64,000 bases of DNA, from positions 30,052 to 94,051 of IMG/VR virus record IMGVR_UViG_3300017691_000005. One strand, given 5' to 3'. Each line of letters opens with the position of its first letter. The first letter of the stretch is position 1. Origin of the DNA: a virus (lineage: Duplodnaviria; Heunggongvirae; Uroviricota; Caudoviricetes). Shown piece after piece: positions 24,801-42,432 of this stretch. Under the pieces are notes generated by a model that saw nothing but the letters and a program-made list of their open reading frames with translations, was not told the DNA's origin and did not search any database. The position numbers were made by a program, and so were the translations under genes.

Positions 24801-24878
24801 TTTAAGTTGTGCGAGTCGAATGTTATCGATTATCTTATGTCGAAAATCTCGATAGCAGTTAACATATTCGCACACATT

Positions 24879-25120: not shown

Positions 25121-25210
25121 CGTAATGGTACGGAGGAATTCGGTTATCTTCAATATGGTGAATCGCGGCTCGGCCGCATAACCCGAATCCATAACATGAC
25201 CATTCATTTA
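25121..25210 (+). ncRNA. inter-tRNA structured element (a), Y-RNA-like family member
   Basis: motif GGAGGAATTCGGTTATC paired with downstream CCCGAATCC, internal GCGGCTCGGCCGC hairpin, 3' motif CCATAACATGACC; flanking AATGGT/ACCATT helix. Confidence 0.4.
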
Positions 25211-25779: not shown

Positions 25780-25975
25780 CTTGAATGAGTCGAAGAGTTT
25801 CGGTTATCAACCTTTGTCTAATAAACAAATTAACACCGATTCTCACAACATATTCATTCTCAAGTTTCAAGGTACGAATGTCTTTCTTTATCAAAAGTTC
25901 AACTCTTTTATTTTCCACCACAAGGAAAATAGCCCGTTGGGGGCGCTGGAAGCCAATAACATGACCTTGATTTAT
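25780..25975 (+). ncRNA. inter-tRNA structured element (b), Y-RNA-like family member (long variant)
   Basis: 5' motif CGAAGAGTTTCGGTTATC (25801-25818), 3' motif CAATAACATGACCTTGAT (25954-25971) identical to element (d); no credible ORF. Confidence 0.35.
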
Positions 25976-26811: not shown

Positions 26812-27344
26812 ATTTTCTGAGAAGGCCGGTCAAGAATATGATTCCACCGTTTGTTCTTCAATGTCAGACATTTTATAGATCTAGAGTATCTGAGACCGGT
26901 AGCGATGATCCATTTAAAACATATCCAGAACAACGCAAAAAAGTTACATTCGATGAGGCCAACCTTATCAGCAGTCGTGTAGACGACGGGTATGGAGGAC
27001 AAAGTAATTATCATCGACCAGTTCTAGATATAGATATTCCTATAGCGGTAGTCCCTAGTTCTACATTAGGTCATAATCACCTCTTCATCAATAAGGAGAT
27101 GACCAGTGATCAATATCAAAGACTGCTAGAAGTTCTTCGTGATCTAGGTATTATTGAACATGGATACATGAAGCAGTTTAATATTCTTGGAGAGACATGT
27201 GTACGAACACCTCATGCTCCTAAGGGTAGTGCTTTAGAGAAACAAATTAACGAAGAGTTTAAACAGTCTTCTGAGAAAGAAGATATTAAGAAACAGATTG
27301 AGATCTTGCAGTCGCGTCTTGACGCGCTTGAAGATGGTTGGTAG
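26808..27344 (+). CDS. hypothetical protein
   Basis: 178 aa ORF, ATGA coupling. Confidence 0.45.
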   Translation: MNFLRRPVKNMIPPFVLQCQTFYRSRVSETGSDDPFKTYPEQRKKVTFDEANLISSRVDDGYGGQSNYHRPVLDIDIPIAVVPSSTLGHNHLFINKEMTSDQYQRLLEVLRDLGIIEHGYMKQFNILGETCVRTPHAPKGSALEKQINEEFKQSSEKEDIKKQIEILQSRLDALEDGW

Positions 27345-27351
27345 AGTTATA

Positions 27352-27462
27352 CATGTTGAGCCGGAAGAGTTCGGTTATCTATCTGTCAAATAGGCGACAC
27401 GGTTCGATTCCGTGATTGGATGGTTCCTAGTTAAAACCCGAAGTCTATAACACGTTCAACAC
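27352..27462 (+). ncRNA. inter-tRNA structured element (c), Y-RNA-like family member with T-arm-like hairpin
   Basis: GGAAGAGTTCGGTTATC ... CACGG-TTCGATT-CCGTG ... GGATGGTTCC ... CCCGAAGTCTATAACACG; closing helix GTTGA/TCAAC. Confidence 0.4.
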
Positions 27463-27591
27463 TTAGATTTGCTTGTCTTGACTAGACAAGAGCCAGCGGA
27501 TATACCCAGAGGGACTAGTCATTCTTCGCCATACCCGCCTGTCACAACAGGTATATTTGTAAAGGGTATGGATCATCGCGGCTGGCACCCT

Positions 27592-27667
27592 GCCCATTGG
27601 TGCTGCGTTGGTTGCGGCAGCGATTCTTATAAAATCGTGGCCCTGAGTTCAATTCTCAGAATGGGTA
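27592..27667 (+). tRNA. tRNA-Ile (TAT)
   Basis: acceptor GCCCATT/AATGGGT, D-stem TGCT/GGCA, anticodon arm CGATT-CTTATAA-AATCG, T-arm CTGAG-TTCAATT-CTCAG. Confidence 0.5.
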
Positions 27668-27816
27668 CTTCAAGGTACGGATGCTATTCGGTTATCGAAT
27701 TTGGATCGAGTTGAGGGAGTTCGAATCTCTCTGCCCGCACTTCATGCGGGTATGGTGTAATGGCAGCACGCTAAAAACCCGAATGCAATAACATGACCTT
27801 GATACCTGGAAGTACA
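27666..27816 (+). ncRNA. candidate YrlA-like Y RNA with circularly permuted tRNA-like domain (element d)
   Basis: outer helix GTACTTCAAGGTA (27666-78) / TACCTGGAAGTAC (27804-16); order T-arm GGGAG-TTCGAAT-CTCTC, acceptor-3' TGCCCGC, loop ACTTCAT, acceptor-5' GCGGGTA, TG, D-arm GTG-TAATGGCAG-CAC; motifs TATTCGG/CCCGAAT and CAATAACATGACC; about 320 nt upstream of the Ro60 gene. Confidence 0.5.
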
Positions 27817-27895
27817 ATCCGAAAGTTGGCGACGGAGACGGTCTTGAAAACCGTTGAGCGTAAAAGCCTTGTGGGTTCGACCCCCACTGCTTCCG
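27808..27895 (+). tRNA. tRNA-Ser (TGA), class II
   Basis: acceptor GGAAGTA/TGCTTCC, D-stem TCCG/CGGA, anticodon arm ACGGT-CTTGAAA-ACCGT, long variable arm, T-arm GTGGG-TTCGACC-CCCAC. Confidence 0.55.
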
Positions 27896-27921
27896 CATCA
27901 TCCCTACTACATTAGGAAAAT

Positions 27922-28137
27922 ATGTCTGAAGTATTATGGACAGATAAACAGCAATTAGAAGATCTTGTAGGTCTTATTACAAAAGCCGTGATGGACGGTG
28001 CGTTTATTGGATACTCTGAAGTCACAGAGCCTAAACTCCTAAAAGTAATTTCAGATACTTCTATGGCTGTGACAAAACTTTACACAGATTTTCTCAACCG
28101 AGAAGCAAACACTATTTCCCAGAAAGGGGACGAATAA
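27922..28137 (+). CDS. hypothetical protein
   Basis: 71 aa, RBS AGGAAAATATG; stop overlaps the start of the Ro60 gene. Confidence 0.45.
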   Translation: MSEVLWTDKQQLEDLVGLITKAVMDGAFIGYSEVTEPKLLKVISDTSMAVTKLYTDFLNREANTISQKGDE

Positions 28138-29789
28138 TGAGTAACTCACTTATTAAGAACACCGCTGCTACTAAGGCACGCAAGAACACAACTCCTCAGA
28201 CCGTTAAGGCTGATGAGGCTCAGGTCAAGAACAACGCGGGTGGATTTACATTCGTTGTTAGTGATCGTGACCGTCTAGAGCGATTCCTGATTCTAGGTAC
28301 CGATGGAGGTACTTATTACGTATCAGAGAAGAAGATTACTGACCAGAATATTGCATTCCTTCGTAATCTTCTATCCCAAGACGAGCGTCTAGTCGTTGAT
28401 GCTGCCGTTGATGTTTCTGTTAATGGACGTGCATACAAGAACAGCCCTGCAATTTTTGCTATCGCTCTTGCTCTAACCGAGGGCAAGGATAAGGAATATG
28501 CACGAGAGGCATTTAACAAGGTAGTTCGTACTGGAACTCATCTATTTGAGGCTGTTGAATATATTAATAACCTTGGTGGTTGGGGGCGCGCAAAGCGTAA
28601 GGCTGTTGCGGGTTGGTACGAGTCTAAGGATGCTGACTCTCAGGCATACCAGACTGTCAAGTACCGTCAGCGAAATGGGTGGACTCACAAGGATGTCCTA
28701 CGTCTGAGCCACGCAAAGCCTGATCCTTACGTTGCTAATTTCGCCCTAGGTAAGAAGGTTGTCTCTGATGACAAGCCTCAGGTAATTTCTGGTTTTGAGG
28801 CTGCACAGTCGGCCGGGTCCGAGAAGGAAGTAATTTCTGTTCTTGAGACTTATAAGAATCTTCCTTGGGAGGCTATTCCTACCGAGTTCCTTAAGTCAGA
28901 TAAGGTTTGGAAGACTCTTTTCTACAACAACCAACTAAACGGTCAAGCGCTTGTTCGTAATATTGTCCGTCTTTCTCGACTAAATGCCTTCAATGATATG
29001 CAGTTTGCTGCTGACTATGCCAAGCGACTAACTGACGAAGAGATGATTAAGAAGACACGTCTTCACCCAATCAACTATCTAAATGCAGTTGTCGTTTATG
29101 AACAGGGTCAGATTGAGCGTCAGGGCAATTACGGTTACTACGGAGGATCTCGTAAGAAGGATTGGCAGACCAGTTCAGTCATCATTGATGCTCTCAATGA
29201 AGGTTTCCATTCTTCATTCAAGTCTGTTGAGCCTGCCGGTAAGCGCACTCTAGAAGCAATTGATGTTTCAGGTTCCATGAGTTCGCCTGCAATTGGTCTT
29301 GACCTTTCATGTGCTCAGGTATCTGCTGCAATTGCTATGACTATTGCTCGTACCGAGCCTGCTCACATTATCCGTGGTTTTACTACCGGAAGTGGAAGCC
29401 GTTATAACTGGCGAGGCACAGCAGAACTTACTGATCTTGGTATTTCTGCTAAGACTTCTCTTTCTTCCGCAATGAGTAAGGTTCGGAAGAATAACTTCGG
29501 TGGTACTGATTGTGCTATGCCGATGATTTGGGCTCTTGAGAACAAGGTTGAGGTAGATACGTTTGTTGTCGTCACAGACAACGAGACATGGGCCGGGAGT
29601 ATTCACCCTCACCAGGCTCTAAAGAAGTACCGCGATCAAATGGGTATTGATGCACGTCTTGCGGTTCTAGGTGTCGCATCCACTGAGTTCACTATCGCTG
29701 ATCCTAAGGATAAGGGAATGATGGATTTTGTTGGGTTTGACTCCAATGCACCTCGCGTTCTAGCAGATTTCTCTGCTGGCCGTCTGTAA
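28137..29789 (+). CDS. rsr: Ro60/Rsr ortholog (TROVE domain plus vWA domain with MIDAS)
   Basis: 550 aa; hallmark FLILGTDGGTYYVSEKK (cf. GSEGGTYY of Ro/Rsr), SPAIFAIALAL; C-terminal vWA with MIDAS DVSGSMS at about residue 378, as in Ro60. Confidence 0.8.
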   Translation: MSNSLIKNTAATKARKNTTPQTVKADEAQVKNNAGGFTFVVSDRDRLERFLILGTDGGTYYVSEKKITDQNIAFLRNLLSQDERLVVDAAVDVSVNGRAYKNSPAIFAIALALTEGKDKEYAREAFNKVVRTGTHLFEAVEYINNLGGWGRAKRKAVAGWYESKDADSQAYQTVKYRQRNGWTHKDVLRLSHAKPDPYVANFALGKKVVSDDKPQVISGFEAAQSAGSEKEVISVLETYKNLPWEAIPTEFLKSDKVWKTLFYNNQLNGQALVRNIVRLSRLNAFNDMQFAADYAKRLTDEEMIKKTRLHPINYLNAVVVYEQGQIERQGNYGYYGGSRKKDWQTSSVIIDALNEGFHSSFKSVEPAGKRTLEAIDVSGSMSSPAIGLDLSCAQVSAAIAMTIARTEPAHIIRGFTTGSGSRYNWRGTAELTDLGISAKTSLSSAMSKVRKNNFGGTDCAMPMIWALENKVEVDTFVVVTDNETWAGSIHPHQALKKYRDQMGIDARLAVLGVASTEFTIADPKDKGMMDFVGFDSNAPRVLADFSAGRL

Positions 29790-29790
29790 C

Positions 29791-29822
29791 AAAGAGGCGG
29801 GGCCAACTGGCCCCGCCTCCCT
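29791..29822 (+). terminator. stem-loop terminator after rsr
   Basis: GAGGCGGGGCC-AACT-GGCCCCGCCTC perfect inverted repeat. Confidence 0.5.
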
Positions 29823-29830
29823 TACGTTGA

Positions 29831-30370
29831 TTGGATGACATGACTAATACTGGTTATATTCGCACGCCTAAAATTGGTCACAGCGTAAAAGTAAACGACA
29901 CTTATACTGGCGATTTTGCAATTATTGGTGAAGTGCTTACTGTTGCGGCTGTAGGATCTCAAGGTGAAGTATCCGTTAAAGAATTGTTTGTTAGTAAGAC
30001 AAATCAAAACAAGCAGTACCCTCAGTATTATAGACAGAATCCTATTCTACTTTCTTATGAGTATAATCTTATTGAGTATCCAACCATCAAAGATAAGTTT
30101 GATGCGGACGTTAACGTTGGGGATTATGTTGTAGTAGCCCCGGCGGTACATGGTGGTCACATTGAGCGTGGTGTCATTAAGACAACTTCTATTAACAACC
30201 AATATGGCAGAGATAATCAGGCATTTACTTTGGAAGTTGACACTGAGACACGGTATTGGGAGGCGGAAGATCGTAAATTTTCGGTTCCTAAAAAAACAAT
30301 TAGGCATTATGGTTCCTCGGCGGGTCTATTGCTTCTGACCAAAGCAGTTGACAGGTTTGACGCTCCCTGA
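29831..30370 (+). CDS. hypothetical protein
   Basis: 179 aa ORF. Confidence 0.45.
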   Translation: MDDMTNTGYIRTPKIGHSVKVNDTYTGDFAIIGEVLTVAAVGSQGEVSVKELFVSKTNQNKQYPQYYRQNPILLSYEYNLIEYPTIKDKFDADVNVGDYVVVAPAVHGGHIERGVIKTTSINNQYGRDNQAFTLEVDTETRYWEAEDRKFSVPKKTIRHYGSSAGLLLLTKAVDRFDAP

Positions 30371-31279: not shown

Positions 31280-31339
31280 AGTGATGTATTAGGTACCGTG
31301 ATATCCGGTGGCTTGGTAATTGAAACCCTAATACTTTTA

Positions 31340-31445
31340 TATCGGGTCGATTGAATTCGTTTATCTTCGCCAATGATTGAAGGCTAGTGGTTCGACTCCA
31401 CGGCACAGGGATGGTTCCCATCGAATTCTTACACATATCTGATTT
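31340..31445 (+). ncRNA. inter-tRNA structured element (e), Y-RNA-like family member with T-arm-like hairpin
   Basis: GAATTCGTTTATC ... GTGG-TTCGACT-CCAC ... GGATGGTTCC ... CGAATTCTTACACATATC; GAATTCG/CGAATTC helix. Confidence 0.35.
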
Positions 31446-31447
31446 AT

Positions 31448-31568: not shown

Positions 31569-32447
31569 ATGTTCTGGCTCATTGTTTTTAGCGCTCTTGT
31601 AATTATTTTTCTTCTGGCTGTAGCAGCCGCTGTCATTACTAAATCCCCTGGCCCAAGGCTAGTAGCAGCACTAGTTCTAGTGATTGCACTAGTATTCACA
31701 GCATTTAATTCATTTACCACGGTTGGTGCTCGTAGCGTGGGTATTCAAACTGGATTTGGTAAGTACATGCAGACCCTTGATAATGGTTTCCACATCAAGG
31801 CGCCTTATTCCAGTGTTGAAGAGTTCAGCACTCAAGTTCAGTACCTTGACCTAAATGGTGAGGGTGATGCTGTTGCCGTGACATTCAAGGGCGGCGGCGG
31901 TGGTAATGTAAATGCTACGGTCCGCTGGCGTATCGATGCCAAGCAGGCTGAGAATCTTTGGAGTAAGTACCGTACATTTGAAGCGGTAAGGGATCAACTA
32001 GTGACTTCTTCTGCTAAGGATTCATTCCGAGTTGTTGTTGCCAACTACACTCCTAATGATGCTCGTAGTGGTGAGAACATTCGACCCATTACTGAGGCGG
32101 TAGTTGCTGACCTTTCCAAGAATCTCGCTAATGACGGTATTGTGATTGACTCTGTATCCATTTCTTCTCTTGGTCTAGATGCAAATAGTCAAGCAAGTCT
32201 TGACCGTATTGTTCAAGCCAATAATGATATTGAACGTGCTACCGCTGAACAGCAGAGGGCTCAGATTGATGCTGAGACTGCTCGTATCCGTCAGGAAACC
32301 GGCGCGCTCGCTCCTGAGGCTAATATTCGTTACTGCCTTGAACTGGTGAACAGTTGGGACGTTGCCAAGAATGGTAATCTTCCCGCGACATTTAACTGTG
32401 CGCTGACTGATCCTGCAAATATCACTCCCGTTCTCCCGGTACAGTGA
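31569..32447 (+). CDS. SPFH/band-7 (prohibitin/stomatin-like) membrane protein
   Basis: N-terminal TM helix, SPFH-type core, C-terminal coiled coil (AEQQRAQIDAETARIRQE). Confidence 0.65.
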   Translation: MFWLIVFSALVIIFLLAVAAAVITKSPGPRLVAALVLVIALVFTAFNSFTTVGARSVGIQTGFGKYMQTLDNGFHIKAPYSSVEEFSTQVQYLDLNGEGDAVAVTFKGGGGGNVNATVRWRIDAKQAENLWSKYRTFEAVRDQLVTSSAKDSFRVVVANYTPNDARSGENIRPITEAVVADLSKNLANDGIVIDSVSISSLGLDANSQASLDRIVQANNDIERATAEQQRAQIDAETARIRQETGALAPEANIRYCLELVNSWDVAKNGNLPATFNCALTDPANITPVLPVQ

Positions 32448-39173: not shown

Positions 39174-39301
39174 CGCAATGACGAGTATAAATAATAACTA
39201 AATAGTAATATTGATTACGGTACGAATGTTGTGGGTTACCTTGCAGCAGTCGAAAGACAACACTCGTCACTCCCATAGCAGCAAACAATACCGTGATTAA
39301 T

Positions 39302-40648: not shown

Positions 40649-40889
40649 TCCAGATTGGGATTGTTTAGATTGTCAGTGTGACACTCATTTAGAATATTAT
40701 ATGGTTAAGGACAAATTGTGGAAGAAATACGGTGCGGGTGAAGCCATGTTGTGCATCGGTTGTTTAGAAGTTAGGATGAGTCGTCAACTAGAACCTAATG
40801 ATTTCACTAACTACCCAATCAACAATCCTTCTTTTTGGAAAAAATCTAATCGCTTGATCAGCCGACTGACAGGAGTATTCGATGATTGA
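40641..40889 (+). CDS. Zn-finger protein
   Basis: CLDCQCDTH...CIGC. Confidence 0.35.
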   Translation: MDDPDWDCLDCQCDTHLEYYMVKDKLWKKYGAGEAMLCIGCLEVRMSRQLEPNDFTNYPINNPSFWKKSNRLISRLTGVFDD

Positions 40890-41403
40890 CACTCGTAATG
40901 TTATTGATTATTACAAGGGTTGGGAGAACGAGTTTATTGTTGATCATCTGGATACTTCTCGACTCCCTATGTCCGTTGTAACTGAAAACGTTTCAGGAGA
41001 TTTTCATAAGGCCAATATTCTTAGAACTGCTGAGGGGTTCAATCTAAAGGAGTTTTGGATTGTTGGTTCTAAGAAGTGGGACCGCCGTGCAGCCGTTGGA
41101 GCCCACCACAGGATGCCGGTACGTTATTCTGCTAGCCTCGCAGACATGGTGTTCAGCCTTGATGCGGAGCCATACATCGTCACACTAGATAACGTTCCAG
41201 GCGCTGTGTCCCTTTACGATTACGAGTGGAAGCCGAACACAATGATGATTGTTGGTGAGGAGCAGCGCGGGGTAAGTAATGACGCTATTGATATTGCCAA
41301 CGATGTAGTGTATATTCCTATGAGGGGCGCAGTGAGATCATTCAGTGTTTCTACTGCTGCCGGTATTGCCATGTCATCTTATGTGCAGCAAATGATTAAA
41401 TAA
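40882..41403 (+). CDS. SpoU/TrmH-family RNA 2'-O-methyltransferase
   Basis: SPOUT motifs IVGEEQRGVS ... SFSVSTAAGIAMSSY. Confidence 0.6.
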   Translation: MIDTRNVIDYYKGWENEFIVDHLDTSRLPMSVVTENVSGDFHKANILRTAEGFNLKEFWIVGSKKWDRRAAVGAHHRMPVRYSASLADMVFSLDAEPYIVTLDNVPGAVSLYDYEWKPNTMMIVGEEQRGVSNDAIDIANDVVYIPMRGAVRSFSVSTAAGIAMSSYVQQMIK

Positions 41404-41976: not shown

Positions 41977-42432
41977 TTGAATACTCGTATTCCAACAAGG
42001 GAGGCACAATGTTTACTCGTCCTTCATACCACGACTACATCTTCTCCAAGGGTCATATTTCAAATAAAGGAGAAGTCGTTTCTTAATATTGCCATTCGTG
42101 CTGCTGAAGATTCTGAATGCTCTCAGCGCCACGGGGCAGTGGTTGTCAAGTCTGGTAGCGTCCATTCCATTGCTACCAATCGGTACAGAAACTCGCCCAC
42201 CTTTGTTCCCAGCGATAATCCTGAGGGCAAGGGAACAATTTTCTCCTTCCATGCTGAGGGTAGAGCAATCGACCGGGCCGTTGGAGATACAATCTTTGTT
42301 GCTAGAGTAAGCCCCGCCGGAGAGCCAAGACTCTCTATGCCATGTGTCATGTGCTTTAACCAAATTGAGCAGGCGGGGTTTAAGAAGATTGTTTTCACAA
42401 CCAACAATGGCGCAGCCAAGATCTATCTCTAG
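41977..42432 (+). CDS. dCMP/cytidine deaminase family protein (start uncertain)
   Basis: HAEGRAI...PCVMCFNQI zinc-binding deaminase motifs; TTG start at 41977 lacks a good RBS. Confidence 0.55.
   Translation: MNTRIPTREAQCLLVLHTTTTSSPRVIFQIKEKSFLNIAIRAAEDSECSQRHGAVVVKSGSVHSIATNRYRNSPTFVPSDNPEGKGTIFSFHAEGRAIDRAVGDTIFVARVSPAGEPRLSMPCVMCFNQIEQAGFKKIVFTTNNGAAKIYL

Follow-up and report, generated by a model that had tools for sequence, protein, structure and literature searches.

What is the structured element that sits between two transfer RNA (tRNA) genes shortly before the Ro60 gene of an uncultured phage, and does it serve as the RNA partner of that protein? The question is raised by a 64,000-nucleotide (nt) stretch of the Caudoviricetes record IMGVR_UViG_3300017691_000005 (positions 30,052 to 94,051; hereafter the window, to which all coordinates refer unless another sequence is named), in which a sequence-only reading had proposed a Ro60/Rsr ortholog preceded by a YrlA-like Y RNA with a circularly permuted tRNA-like domain. 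The present analysis indicates that nucleotides 27669-27807 (+ strand) very probably encode a Y RNA of the YrlA class that is the RNA partner of the phage Ro60 encoded downstream. This predicted mature form, placed between a tRNA-Ile(UAU) gene and a tRNA-Ser-like gene by a covariance model match, covariation and the minimum free energy (MFE) structure, ends approximately 330 nt before the Ro60 start codon at 28137 on the same strand.

The open reading frame (ORF) at 28137-29789 (+) encodes 550 amino acids (aa) and is, as judged by Pfam, PDB and phage homologs, a full-length Ro60/Rsr ortholog comprising a TROVE ring and a C-terminal vWA domain with a MIDAS (metal-ion-dependent adhesion site). 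Both domains that had been named in the sequence-only reading were recovered with Pfam profiles, vWA_Ro60 (PF25045) with an E-value of 1.5e-60 and TROVE (PF05731) with 1.3e-33, above the cut-off. Of the two hallmark motifs, both present, GTDGGTYY lies at residue 54, and DVSGSMS, which forms the MIDAS motif, lies at residue 376 (about residue 378 in the earlier reading). In a search of PDB sequences, D. radiodurans Rsr (2nvo, 2.4e-107) matched over residues 18-549, and X. laevis Ro60 (1yvp, 8.1e-95) and human RO60 also aligned end to end; the Ro60 of Thermus phage phiLo was not among the matches. A tblastn search with the window protein identified relatives in 358 phage records (212 Mycobacterium, 115 Streptomyces, others). 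The top phage matches were Stanwilliamsviridae (Streptomyces phages) at 64% identity, annotated as 'Ro-like RNA binding protein'; the Ro60 of Rhodococcus phage Trina is 49% identical, and that of the closest relative, contig Ga0182212_1001442 (L016 below), is 79% identical.

The upstream element combines a Ro-binding scaffold with a tRNA-like insert. In the scaffold, a lower stem of 7 base pairs (bp) and an upper stem of 9 bp are separated by a CGGA bulge that faces AAUAACAUG. On its 5' side, the family columns place the lower-stem strand TCAAGGT (27670-27676), a single A and the bulge CGGA (27678-27681), which together (27670-27681) constitute the predicted Ro60-binding site; in the fold, the strand TGC-T-ATTCGG (27682-27691) of the upper ('anticodon-like') stem then pairs with 27779-27787 and is followed by UUAUC (27692-27696). 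The 3' side, assigned by alignment to the covariance model and by the fold, comprises the upper-stem strand CCGAATGCA (27779-27787), the internal loop AATAACATG (27788-27795) and the lower-stem strand ACCTTGA (27796-27802). Enclosed by this scaffold, and in permuted tRNA-like order, are a V (variable-arm-like) hairpin TCGA-ATTTGGA-TCGA (27695-27709; seen in the MFE structure, outside the covariance model and variable in the family), the T arm GGGAG-TTCGAAT-CTCTC (27715-27731), a closed 7-bp acceptor hairpin (3' strand TGCCCGC at 27732-27738, loop ACTTCAT at 27739-27745, 5' strand GCGGGTA at 27746-27752), the dinucleotide U8-G9 (TG, 27753-27754) and the D arm GTGT-AATGGCA-GCAC (27755-27769) with A14, G18, G19 and A21. 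The T arm, the acceptor hairpin and the U8-G9/D-arm segment (27753-27769) are visible in the sequence and are backed by covariation. A 9-nt linker, GCTAAAAAC (GCUAAAAAC), begins at 27770 after the D arm.

The interior order described at the outset (T arm, acceptor 3' strand, 7-nt loop, acceptor 5' strand, TG, D arm) is confirmed, and the tRNA elbow nucleotides G18, G19, U54, U55, C56 and A58 are all in place. The acceptor strands had been called perfectly complementary; they form six Watson-Crick pairs and one G.U pair. When 27669-27807 is folded alone, the MFE structure equals the family structure (-43.1 kcal/mol, z-score -2.27). Copying of the tRNA-like core from a resident tRNA was also considered: the best candidate, tRNA-Gly(UCC), agrees at 37 of 48 positions, and no convincing donor was found.

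The assignment to the YrlA class is carried by homology and covariation. Relatives of the Ro60 gene were gathered from IMG/VR, Joint Genome Institute (JGI) metagenomes and GenBank phages, and their upstream regions were inspected for similar elements. A MAFFT seed alignment (A2) was assembled from seven of these, including an element of mycobacteriophage ET08 (L011:3654-3805) and excluding the window sequence. From these seeds, with the window still unexamined, RNAalifold predicted a lower stem, an upper stem, a T arm, a 7-bp acceptor helix and a D arm, and a covariance model (R1) was built from the seeds and these five helices. Applied to the 64-kb window, the model matched 27668-27804 along its full length (model positions 1-137 of 137) with 84.7 bits and an E-value of 2.5e-18, in agreement with the YrlA-like permuted topology that had been proposed.

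Covariation across homologous phages, the test on which that proposal had been staked, was evaluated in 19 full-length elements fitted to the model (A3; 12 loci plus the window). Of all cells, 92.8% are paired, compared with 34-48.5% when partners are slid by 1-3 columns; double changes occur in 30 of 34 pairs, and none of 500 shuffles reached any observed measure. Compensatory changes were found in each of the five helices. The upper stem (helix 2) is 88.8% paired with double changes in seven of its eight pairs, the T helix (helix 3) is paired in 100% of the 19 sequences with double changes in four of five pairs, the acceptor helix (helix 4) is 96.7% paired with double changes in all seven pairs, and the D helix (helix 5) is 95.6% paired. 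When the window was included in a MAFFT/RNAalifold run without model fitting, the lower, upper, T and D helices were recovered; the acceptor helix was lost there because its length-variable hairpin was misaligned.

A broader, model-fitted alignment of 54 members (A5) was used since a MAFFT alignment of minimal elements (A4) misplaced the 3' strands. In this set, pairing amounts to 87% and 91% in the two helices of the scaffold, all of whose pairs covary, the T arm is present in 38 members, and the acceptor and D arms in about 26. Columns G7, G9, C11 and G12 are nearly invariant, the bulge reads CGAA in 24 and CGGA in 15 of the 54 members, and positions U28, A30 and C32 of the UUAUC motif are invariant in all 54. 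A further conserved motif, AACAU (columns 264-268), directly precedes the 3' strand of the lower stem in every family member. At E<=1e-3, 54 of 55 model matches across 22 sources lie on the Ro60/tRNA strand. The exact scaffold pattern GGTACGGATGNTATTCGGTTATC had no match in IMG/VR.

The closest relative is informative on whether this structure is under selection. Compared with window positions 27668-27804, L016 2403-2542 differs by one base in the first 32 nt and by one base in the last 47 nt; the core of 74-76 nt between them has a different sequence, with the V, T (GTTGG/CCGAC), acceptor (TCGCCCG/CGGGCGG) and D (GGCT/AGCC) stems all kept. From this comparison of sequences, the tRNA-like core looks like it has been exchanged as a cassette in L016. 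This pattern bears on the idea that the element is a decayed remnant of two adjacent tRNA genes, a 3' half followed by a 5' half, persisting as a functionless spacer. Such a remnant would fit the location inside a dense tRNA array, a homolog (L002) is miscalled as tRNA-Asp by ARAGORN, and an origin of YrlA from dimeric pre-tRNAs has been proposed (bioRxiv 10.1101/312249). However, the two 'halves' pair with each other through a helix that covaries in 19 sequences, the flanking scaffold is conserved from mycobacteriophages to the window, and selection on structure is indicated because L016 has swapped its core and yet retained every stem. Decay is therefore considered extremely improbable.

The same part order raises a second alternative, a circularly permuted tRNA gene of the kind known from Cyanidioschyzon merolae, whose transcript would first be closed into a circle and then cut in the acceptor loop, yielding a functional tRNA. 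As in the permuted genes of C. merolae and archaea, the 3' half (within 27715-27769) precedes the 5' half and the acceptor, here of the canonical 7 bp, is closed by a loop. Once the permutation is undone and an artificial anticodon arm is supplied, the acceptor, D and T arms pass as tRNAs in ARAGORN, both for the window element and for three homologs, and an RNA ligase and a polynucleotide kinase are encoded in the same region of phage Belfort. The termini, in contrast, differ from those of permuted tRNA genes: where a spliceable anticodon stem would be expected, they make up a Ro-binding scaffold, and no mature tRNA is derivable. The joined ends give no 5-bp anticodon stem with a 7-nt loop, and instead provide the 7-bp and 9-bp stems, the CGGA/AAUAACAUG internal loop and AACAU, a scaffold common to members that have no tRNA-like part. 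Additionally, the 9-nt linker GCUAAAAAC stands in place of tRNA position 26, no bulge-helix-bulge splice motif is visible, no CCA is encoded, and the element reaches the Rfam tRNA model only as a 14.1-bit partial match. A working permuted tRNA is thus hardly credible here, and the Y RNA assignment is retained.

The ends of the RNA depend on the two flanking genes. ARAGORN places tRNA-Ile(UAU) at 27592-27668 (+), and its 3' end sets the predicted 5' end of the Y RNA; this tRNA has a long D loop and is among those missed by Rfam. The tRNA-Ser(UGA)-like gene at 27808-27895 (+), located by the Rfam tRNA-Sec model and by alignment to annotated genes, sets the predicted 3' end through its own 5' end, the RNase P site. 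It received no ARAGORN call and scored 36.4 bits with Rfam tRNA-Sec (cut-off 47); its orthologs are the tRNA-Ser(tga) genes annotated in phages Belfort and Blueeyedbeauty, relative to which it has a 3-nt insertion in the D loop. The position between tRNA-Ile(TAT) and tRNA-Ser(TGA) given previously is therefore sound, on an ARAGORN call for the first gene and on orthology for the second. The tRNA-Ser-like gene was also seen to have C8, and a compensatory change in its T stem occurs in L016.

A 13-bp helix had been assigned to the very ends of the element. A helix does exist at 27665-27677 / 27803-27815, with 12 pairs and one A.G mismatch, but it borrows tRNA bases and is not the conserved Y RNA stem. 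It takes the last 3-4 nt of the tRNA-Ile(UAU) call and the first 8 nt of the tRNA-Ser-like gene, and its 3' strand TACCTGGAAGTAC (27803-27815, +; from sequence and fold) overlaps the acceptor 5' strand of the latter. Because its strands overlap both flanking tRNAs, this outer helix can only form in the precursor, and a precursor-only pairing is possible. The conserved Ro-binding lower stem is instead, by comparison across the family, the inner 7 bp TCAAGGT (27670-27676) / ACCTTGA (27796-27802), placed there because its 3' strand directly follows AACAU family-wide; this inner stem is also the MFE stem once the tRNA bases are left out. The outer helix competes both with the tRNA-Ser acceptor stem and with this lower stem.

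It could nevertheless be argued that the outer 12-bp helix is itself the functional unit, either as a processing stem joining the tRNA-Ile 3' end to the tRNA-Ser 5' end or as a device making tRNA-Ser and Y RNA maturation mutually exclusive, with the tRNA-like interior being secondary. The helix is the MFE choice when the flanking bases are included, and it is kept in L016, where a C-to-T change preserves a G.U pair. However, L016 is nearly identical here and offers no independent support, the helix was not found in L003/L005, L001 or Belfort, the family alignment puts the conserved lower stem at the inner 7 bp, and the outer pairing cannot survive normal tRNA end processing. This explanation is accordingly regarded as quite unlikely, and the mature Y RNA is taken to end at the tRNA boundaries.

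Set against published systems, the pairing of a phage Ro60 with a permuted-tRNA-like Y RNA is already on record (PMC4201824; bioRxiv 10.1101/312249; PMC12135203). YrlA RNAs have been reported in 254 bacteria and 22 phages, with ET08 shown in Fig. 1D of that study, and are defined by proximity to Ro60 on the same strand, a 5' GNCGAAN0-1G motif, a YUAY opening the V region, stem-loops corresponding to T, AS and D, and tRNA-like tertiary nucleotides (PMC4201824). Most resemble circularly permuted tRNAs with a closed acceptor loop, and the tRNA-like domain of S. Typhimurium YrlA has been solved (PDB 6CU1; bioRxiv 10.1101/312249). The window element lies well within about 4 kb of Ro60 on the same strand and, like YrlA of bacteria and mycobacteriophages, less than 0.5 kb away. 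It also shares with them a 5' CGRA after the lower stem, YUAY (here UUAUC at 27692-27696), the T stem-loop, closed acceptor stem-loop and D stem-loop in the same permuted order with their tRNA nucleotides, and the elbow nucleotides. The 7-bp acceptor stem is common to the M. smegmatis YrlA, which is cleaved by RNase P (PMC4201824). Homology to a published YrlA follows from the model, which includes the ET08 element and excludes the window; the identity of that element with the published RNA rests on the author's own extraction and on a 37.4-bit partial match to the Rfam YrlA model.

The window element also departs from known YrlA: the Rfam YrlA model misses it, the bulge reads UACGGA instead of GNCGAA, the element is wedged between two tRNA genes with spacers of 1-5 nt, it belongs to a set of at least eight paralogous Y-like genes, and its core is block-exchanged in the nearest relative. 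A comparison with phiLo is similarly mixed. According to passages of PMC12135203, that phage, like the window phage, encodes a Ro60 with more than one upstream Y RNA-like gene of stem-bulge-stem form and a CGAA-type motif, and no tRNA-like domain is mentioned in these passages; the copies in phiLo number two as opposed to eight here, and the host lineages are unrelated.

A further departure from the sequence-only reading concerns number. A single Y RNA candidate had been put forward; the window contains at least eight Y-like elements, all on the + strand, consisting of the main element and seven more found with the covariance model, which have the Ro-binding scaffold in common (lower stem, CGRA and upper stem, with UUAUC and, farther on, AACAU). 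The nearest, at 27352-27463 (51.1 bits, E 3.1e-10) about 200 nt upstream, has the Ro-binding scaffold, a V hairpin and a T arm and lacks an acceptor or D arm; it is 96% identical in L016, where a lower-stem G.U pair is G-C. A minimal element at 24807-24875 (41.1 bits, E 7.9e-08; lower stem of 9 bp and upper stem of 9 bp by descriptor) ends 3 nt before tRNA-Gly(UCC). The element at 25124-25204 lies between tRNA-Glu and tRNA-Trp (15.8 bits, E 0.034 with filters off; also a descriptor match), and that at 25781-25861 directly follows tRNA-Ile(GAU) (32.2 bits) and has an ortholog at L016 665-746. The element at 25865-25972 (23.2 bits, E 5.4e-4 with filters off) folds with AU-rich T-, acceptor- and D-like hairpins; it stops 3 nt short of tRNA-Val, and its lower stem is the same as in the main element. 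Farther downstream, 31338-31446 carries a T arm and ends 1 nt before tRNA-Phe (26.6 bits), and 39213-39298 ends 3 nt before tRNA-Thr (28.9 bits; lower stem of 14 bp and upper stem of 9 bp by descriptor). All of these are on the + strand, and with the main element included, a tRNA gene lies 0-6 nt from one or both ends in seven of the eight; the exception is 27352-27463, which is 128 nt upstream of tRNA-Ile.

A hand-written descriptor (lower stem, CGRA, upper stem, UUAYC and ACAN before the 3' strand) picked out seven elements in the window, all of them on the + strand, compared with a mean of 0.02 in 200 shuffles; it was written after the elements were known, and only the covariance model result is independent. 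One further segment, 27491-27589 (+), is uncertain: a sequence reading and its MFE fold show a possible Y-like stem, GCCAG-CGGA-TATACCC ... GGGTATG ... CTGGC. It has no model match, lacks UUAUC and AACAU and has no counterpart in L016; either a diverged Y RNA or an insertion may account for it.

Multiple copies extend to cultured relatives. Belfort, Blueeyedbeauty and Trina have 6-7 model matches per genome. Of the six that Belfort has in 49 kb, five lie no more than 2.2 kb upstream of Ro60, and the seven of Trina all lie within 3.7 kb upstream. Mycobacteriophage ET08 has three elements just upstream of Ro60, as identified by eye. Compared with Belfort, Blueeyedbeauty and Trina, the window Y RNAs are more dispersed, two copies lying 1.5 kb and 9.4 kb downstream of Ro60. 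In mycobacteriophage NoodleTree, a full YrlA (L027 2656-2803, 114 bits) and a minimal Y-like element accompany only a fragment of Ro60 (query residues 20-102).

These observations lead to a broader proposal: in this phage and in the related phages of Streptomyces, Rhodococcus and Mycobacterium, the set of tRNA genes would also serve as an array of Y RNAs. Its paralogs, numbering five to eight or more, would have one Ro60-binding scaffold in common and carry interchangeable effector modules (a complete permuted tRNA, just a T arm, or a plain hairpin); RNase P and 3' processing would cut them from tRNA precursors, and their tRNA-like core would be exchanged as a cassette between close relatives. 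Such a repertoire of adaptors could program a single Ro60, possibly for various RNA targets or various partners in the host. The evidence leaves this proposal evenly poised between being right and wrong. No description of Y RNA arrays in actinophages was found in the papers searched, the nearest hint being Listeria phage CKA15, in which three abundant RNAs lie upstream of a Ro-like gene (PMC12282133). The Y RNA array inside a tRNA array and the swapped tRNA-like cassette of L016 are the only fresh points of this analysis.

The abundance of copies also permits a reading in which the Y-like RNAs act mainly without Ro60, either mimicking tRNAs to titrate defence nucleases or those host enzymes that bind tRNA, or serving as processing punctuation of the tRNA array. 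Such a role agrees with the presence of at least eight copies for a single Ro60 gene, with the distance of 0-6 nt between seven of these and a tRNA gene, and with the retention of YrlA in NoodleTree after the loss of most of Ro60. Conversely, the best-conserved part of every copy is the scaffold matching the published Ro60-binding motif, copies in cultured relatives cluster within 2-4 kb upstream of Ro60, and the NoodleTree host M. smegmatis has its own Rsr (PMC4201824). Action mainly independent of Ro60 is consequently viewed as unlikely, if somewhat less so than the other alternatives, and a Y RNA that partners Ro60 remains the preferred assignment.

A role of the phage Ro60 and its Y RNA in RNA quality control or tRNA surveillance during infection, as envisaged by the sequence-only reading, is hypothetical, and a mechanism can be outlined from known systems. 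The Y RNA-tRNA-Ro60 block would be transcribed as a polycistron. A promoter-like site, TTGACG-17-TAGAGT, at 27319-27347 (+) ends 5 nt before the Y-like RNA 27352-27463, and a GC-rich 11-bp hairpin, GAGGCGGGGCC-AACT-GGCCCCGCCTC, follows the Ro60 stop codon at 29794-29819 (+); the hairpin, visible in the sequence, is probably a terminator without a clear T run, and the terminator scan did not report it. Together, the two sites would bracket a Y RNA-tRNA-Ro60 operon. RNase P cleavage at the tRNA-Ser 5' end and tRNA-Ile 3' processing would release the Y RNA, and Ro60 would bind its lower stem and bulge. The tRNA-like module is expected to fold into an L-shape, to be modified by host TruB/Dus enzymes and, by analogy, to tether Ro60 to a host effector, most likely PNPase, in a RYPER-like machine; during infection, structured RNAs would in this way be subject to redirected decay or quality control. 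PNPase is the best precedent because D. radiodurans Rsr, Salmonella YrlA and phiLo Ro60 all tie to it: a Y RNA tethers Rsr to PNPase in D. radiodurans and YrlA is part of an Rsr-PNPase complex in Salmonella (PMC4201824), and the phiLo Ro60 and Yrl RNAs form a ternary complex with host PNPase, according to passages of PMC12135203. The closed acceptor hairpin may also be opened by RNase P, with a cut between 27745 and 27746; this cleavage is predicted because the hairpin has 7 bp, as in M. smegmatis YrlA.

Several results weigh against the identification of the element as a YrlA-class partner of Ro60 or against parts of this mechanism. The Rfam YrlA model (RF02553), to which the sequence-only reading had pointed, gave nothing on the element at its gathering score (69 bits) or at E<=10, including in a search of 151 nt. 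This miss reflects the reach of the Rfam seed, which does not cover phage members, and not absence of the RNA, because the ET08 element too obtains only 37.4 bits (model positions 23-87) under the same gathering cut-off. The 5' motif UACGGAUG keeps the C, G, final A and G of the published GNCGAAN0-1G and deviates at two positions, and the folding z-score of -2.3 is modest. Promoter and terminator scans of the window were not above shuffled background, and PNPase as the effector is assumed from other systems. Finally, with a YrlA persisting beside a Ro60 fragment in NoodleTree, strict dependence on phage Ro60 is not proven.

As it stands, the analysis extends the Ro60/Y RNA system to an uncultured lineage near the large Streptomyces phages, and its practical yield is a working covariance model and a list of loci, which show multi-copy Y RNA families inside actinophage tRNA arrays. 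If the array proposal is true, Belfort, Blueeyedbeauty, Trina and Bxz1-like mycobacteriophages would be tractable systems for addressing the purpose of the YrlA tRNA-like domain and the viral need for Ro60. None of the examined phage records annotates a Y RNA at these loci. In Trina (L012 3634-3842), a RefSeq pseudo 'tRNA-OTHER' is placed over Y RNAs, hypothetical coding sequences are laid over them in ET08 (gp219, L011 3758-3931) and NoodleTree (gp112/gp113, L027 2592-2931), and at L002 2250-2322 the element called tRNA-Asp by ARAGORN is an acceptor-less Y-like one.

The source phage itself had no DNA-level match when the window (42% GC) was compared by megablast with 50,697 phage records. 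The terminase near Ro60 is 53% identical to terminases of Streptomyces phages (Stanwilliamsviridae), and the window shares with Belfort, Blueeyedbeauty and Trina the gene order terminase, HNH, tRNA array with Y-like elements between tRNA-Ile and tRNA-Ser, Ro60 and Band-7 protein. Because of the Ro60 (64%) and terminase (53%) identities, the common gene order and the lack of a DNA-level match, the sequence identifies the source as an uncultured, distant relative of tRNA-rich actinophages, namely the large Streptomyces phages. On the + strand, the block around Ro60 reads in order Y RNA 27352-27463, the uncertain element 27491-27589, tRNA-Ile, the YrlA-like RNA, the tRNA-Ser-like gene, a 71-aa ORF, Ro60 and the hairpin. 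The 71-aa ORF (27922-28137, +; from the ORF list) has a stop codon overlapping the Ro60 start codon; it was ruled out as a conserved Ro60 partner, its only counterpart being in L016 (51% identity) and Pfam giving no match.

Within the wider array, ARAGORN called 28 tRNAs in the window and the Rfam tRNA model at its gathering score only 22. A SpoU-family RNA methyltransferase (40882-41403) and a cytidine/adenosine-deaminase-like protein (41977-42432), both on the + strand, are encoded on either side of tRNA-Ser(GCU) and are possible phage tRNA-modifying enzymes of the same array. In Belfort, the tRNA/Y RNA/Ro60 region (L025 32899-34804) includes the RNA ligase and polynucleotide kinase genes and a transfer-messenger RNA (tmRNA). 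The Band-7/SPFH protein of the window is encoded downstream of Ro60 at 31569-32447 (+); its counterpart lies directly downstream of Ro60 in Trina and about 7.5 kb downstream in Belfort.

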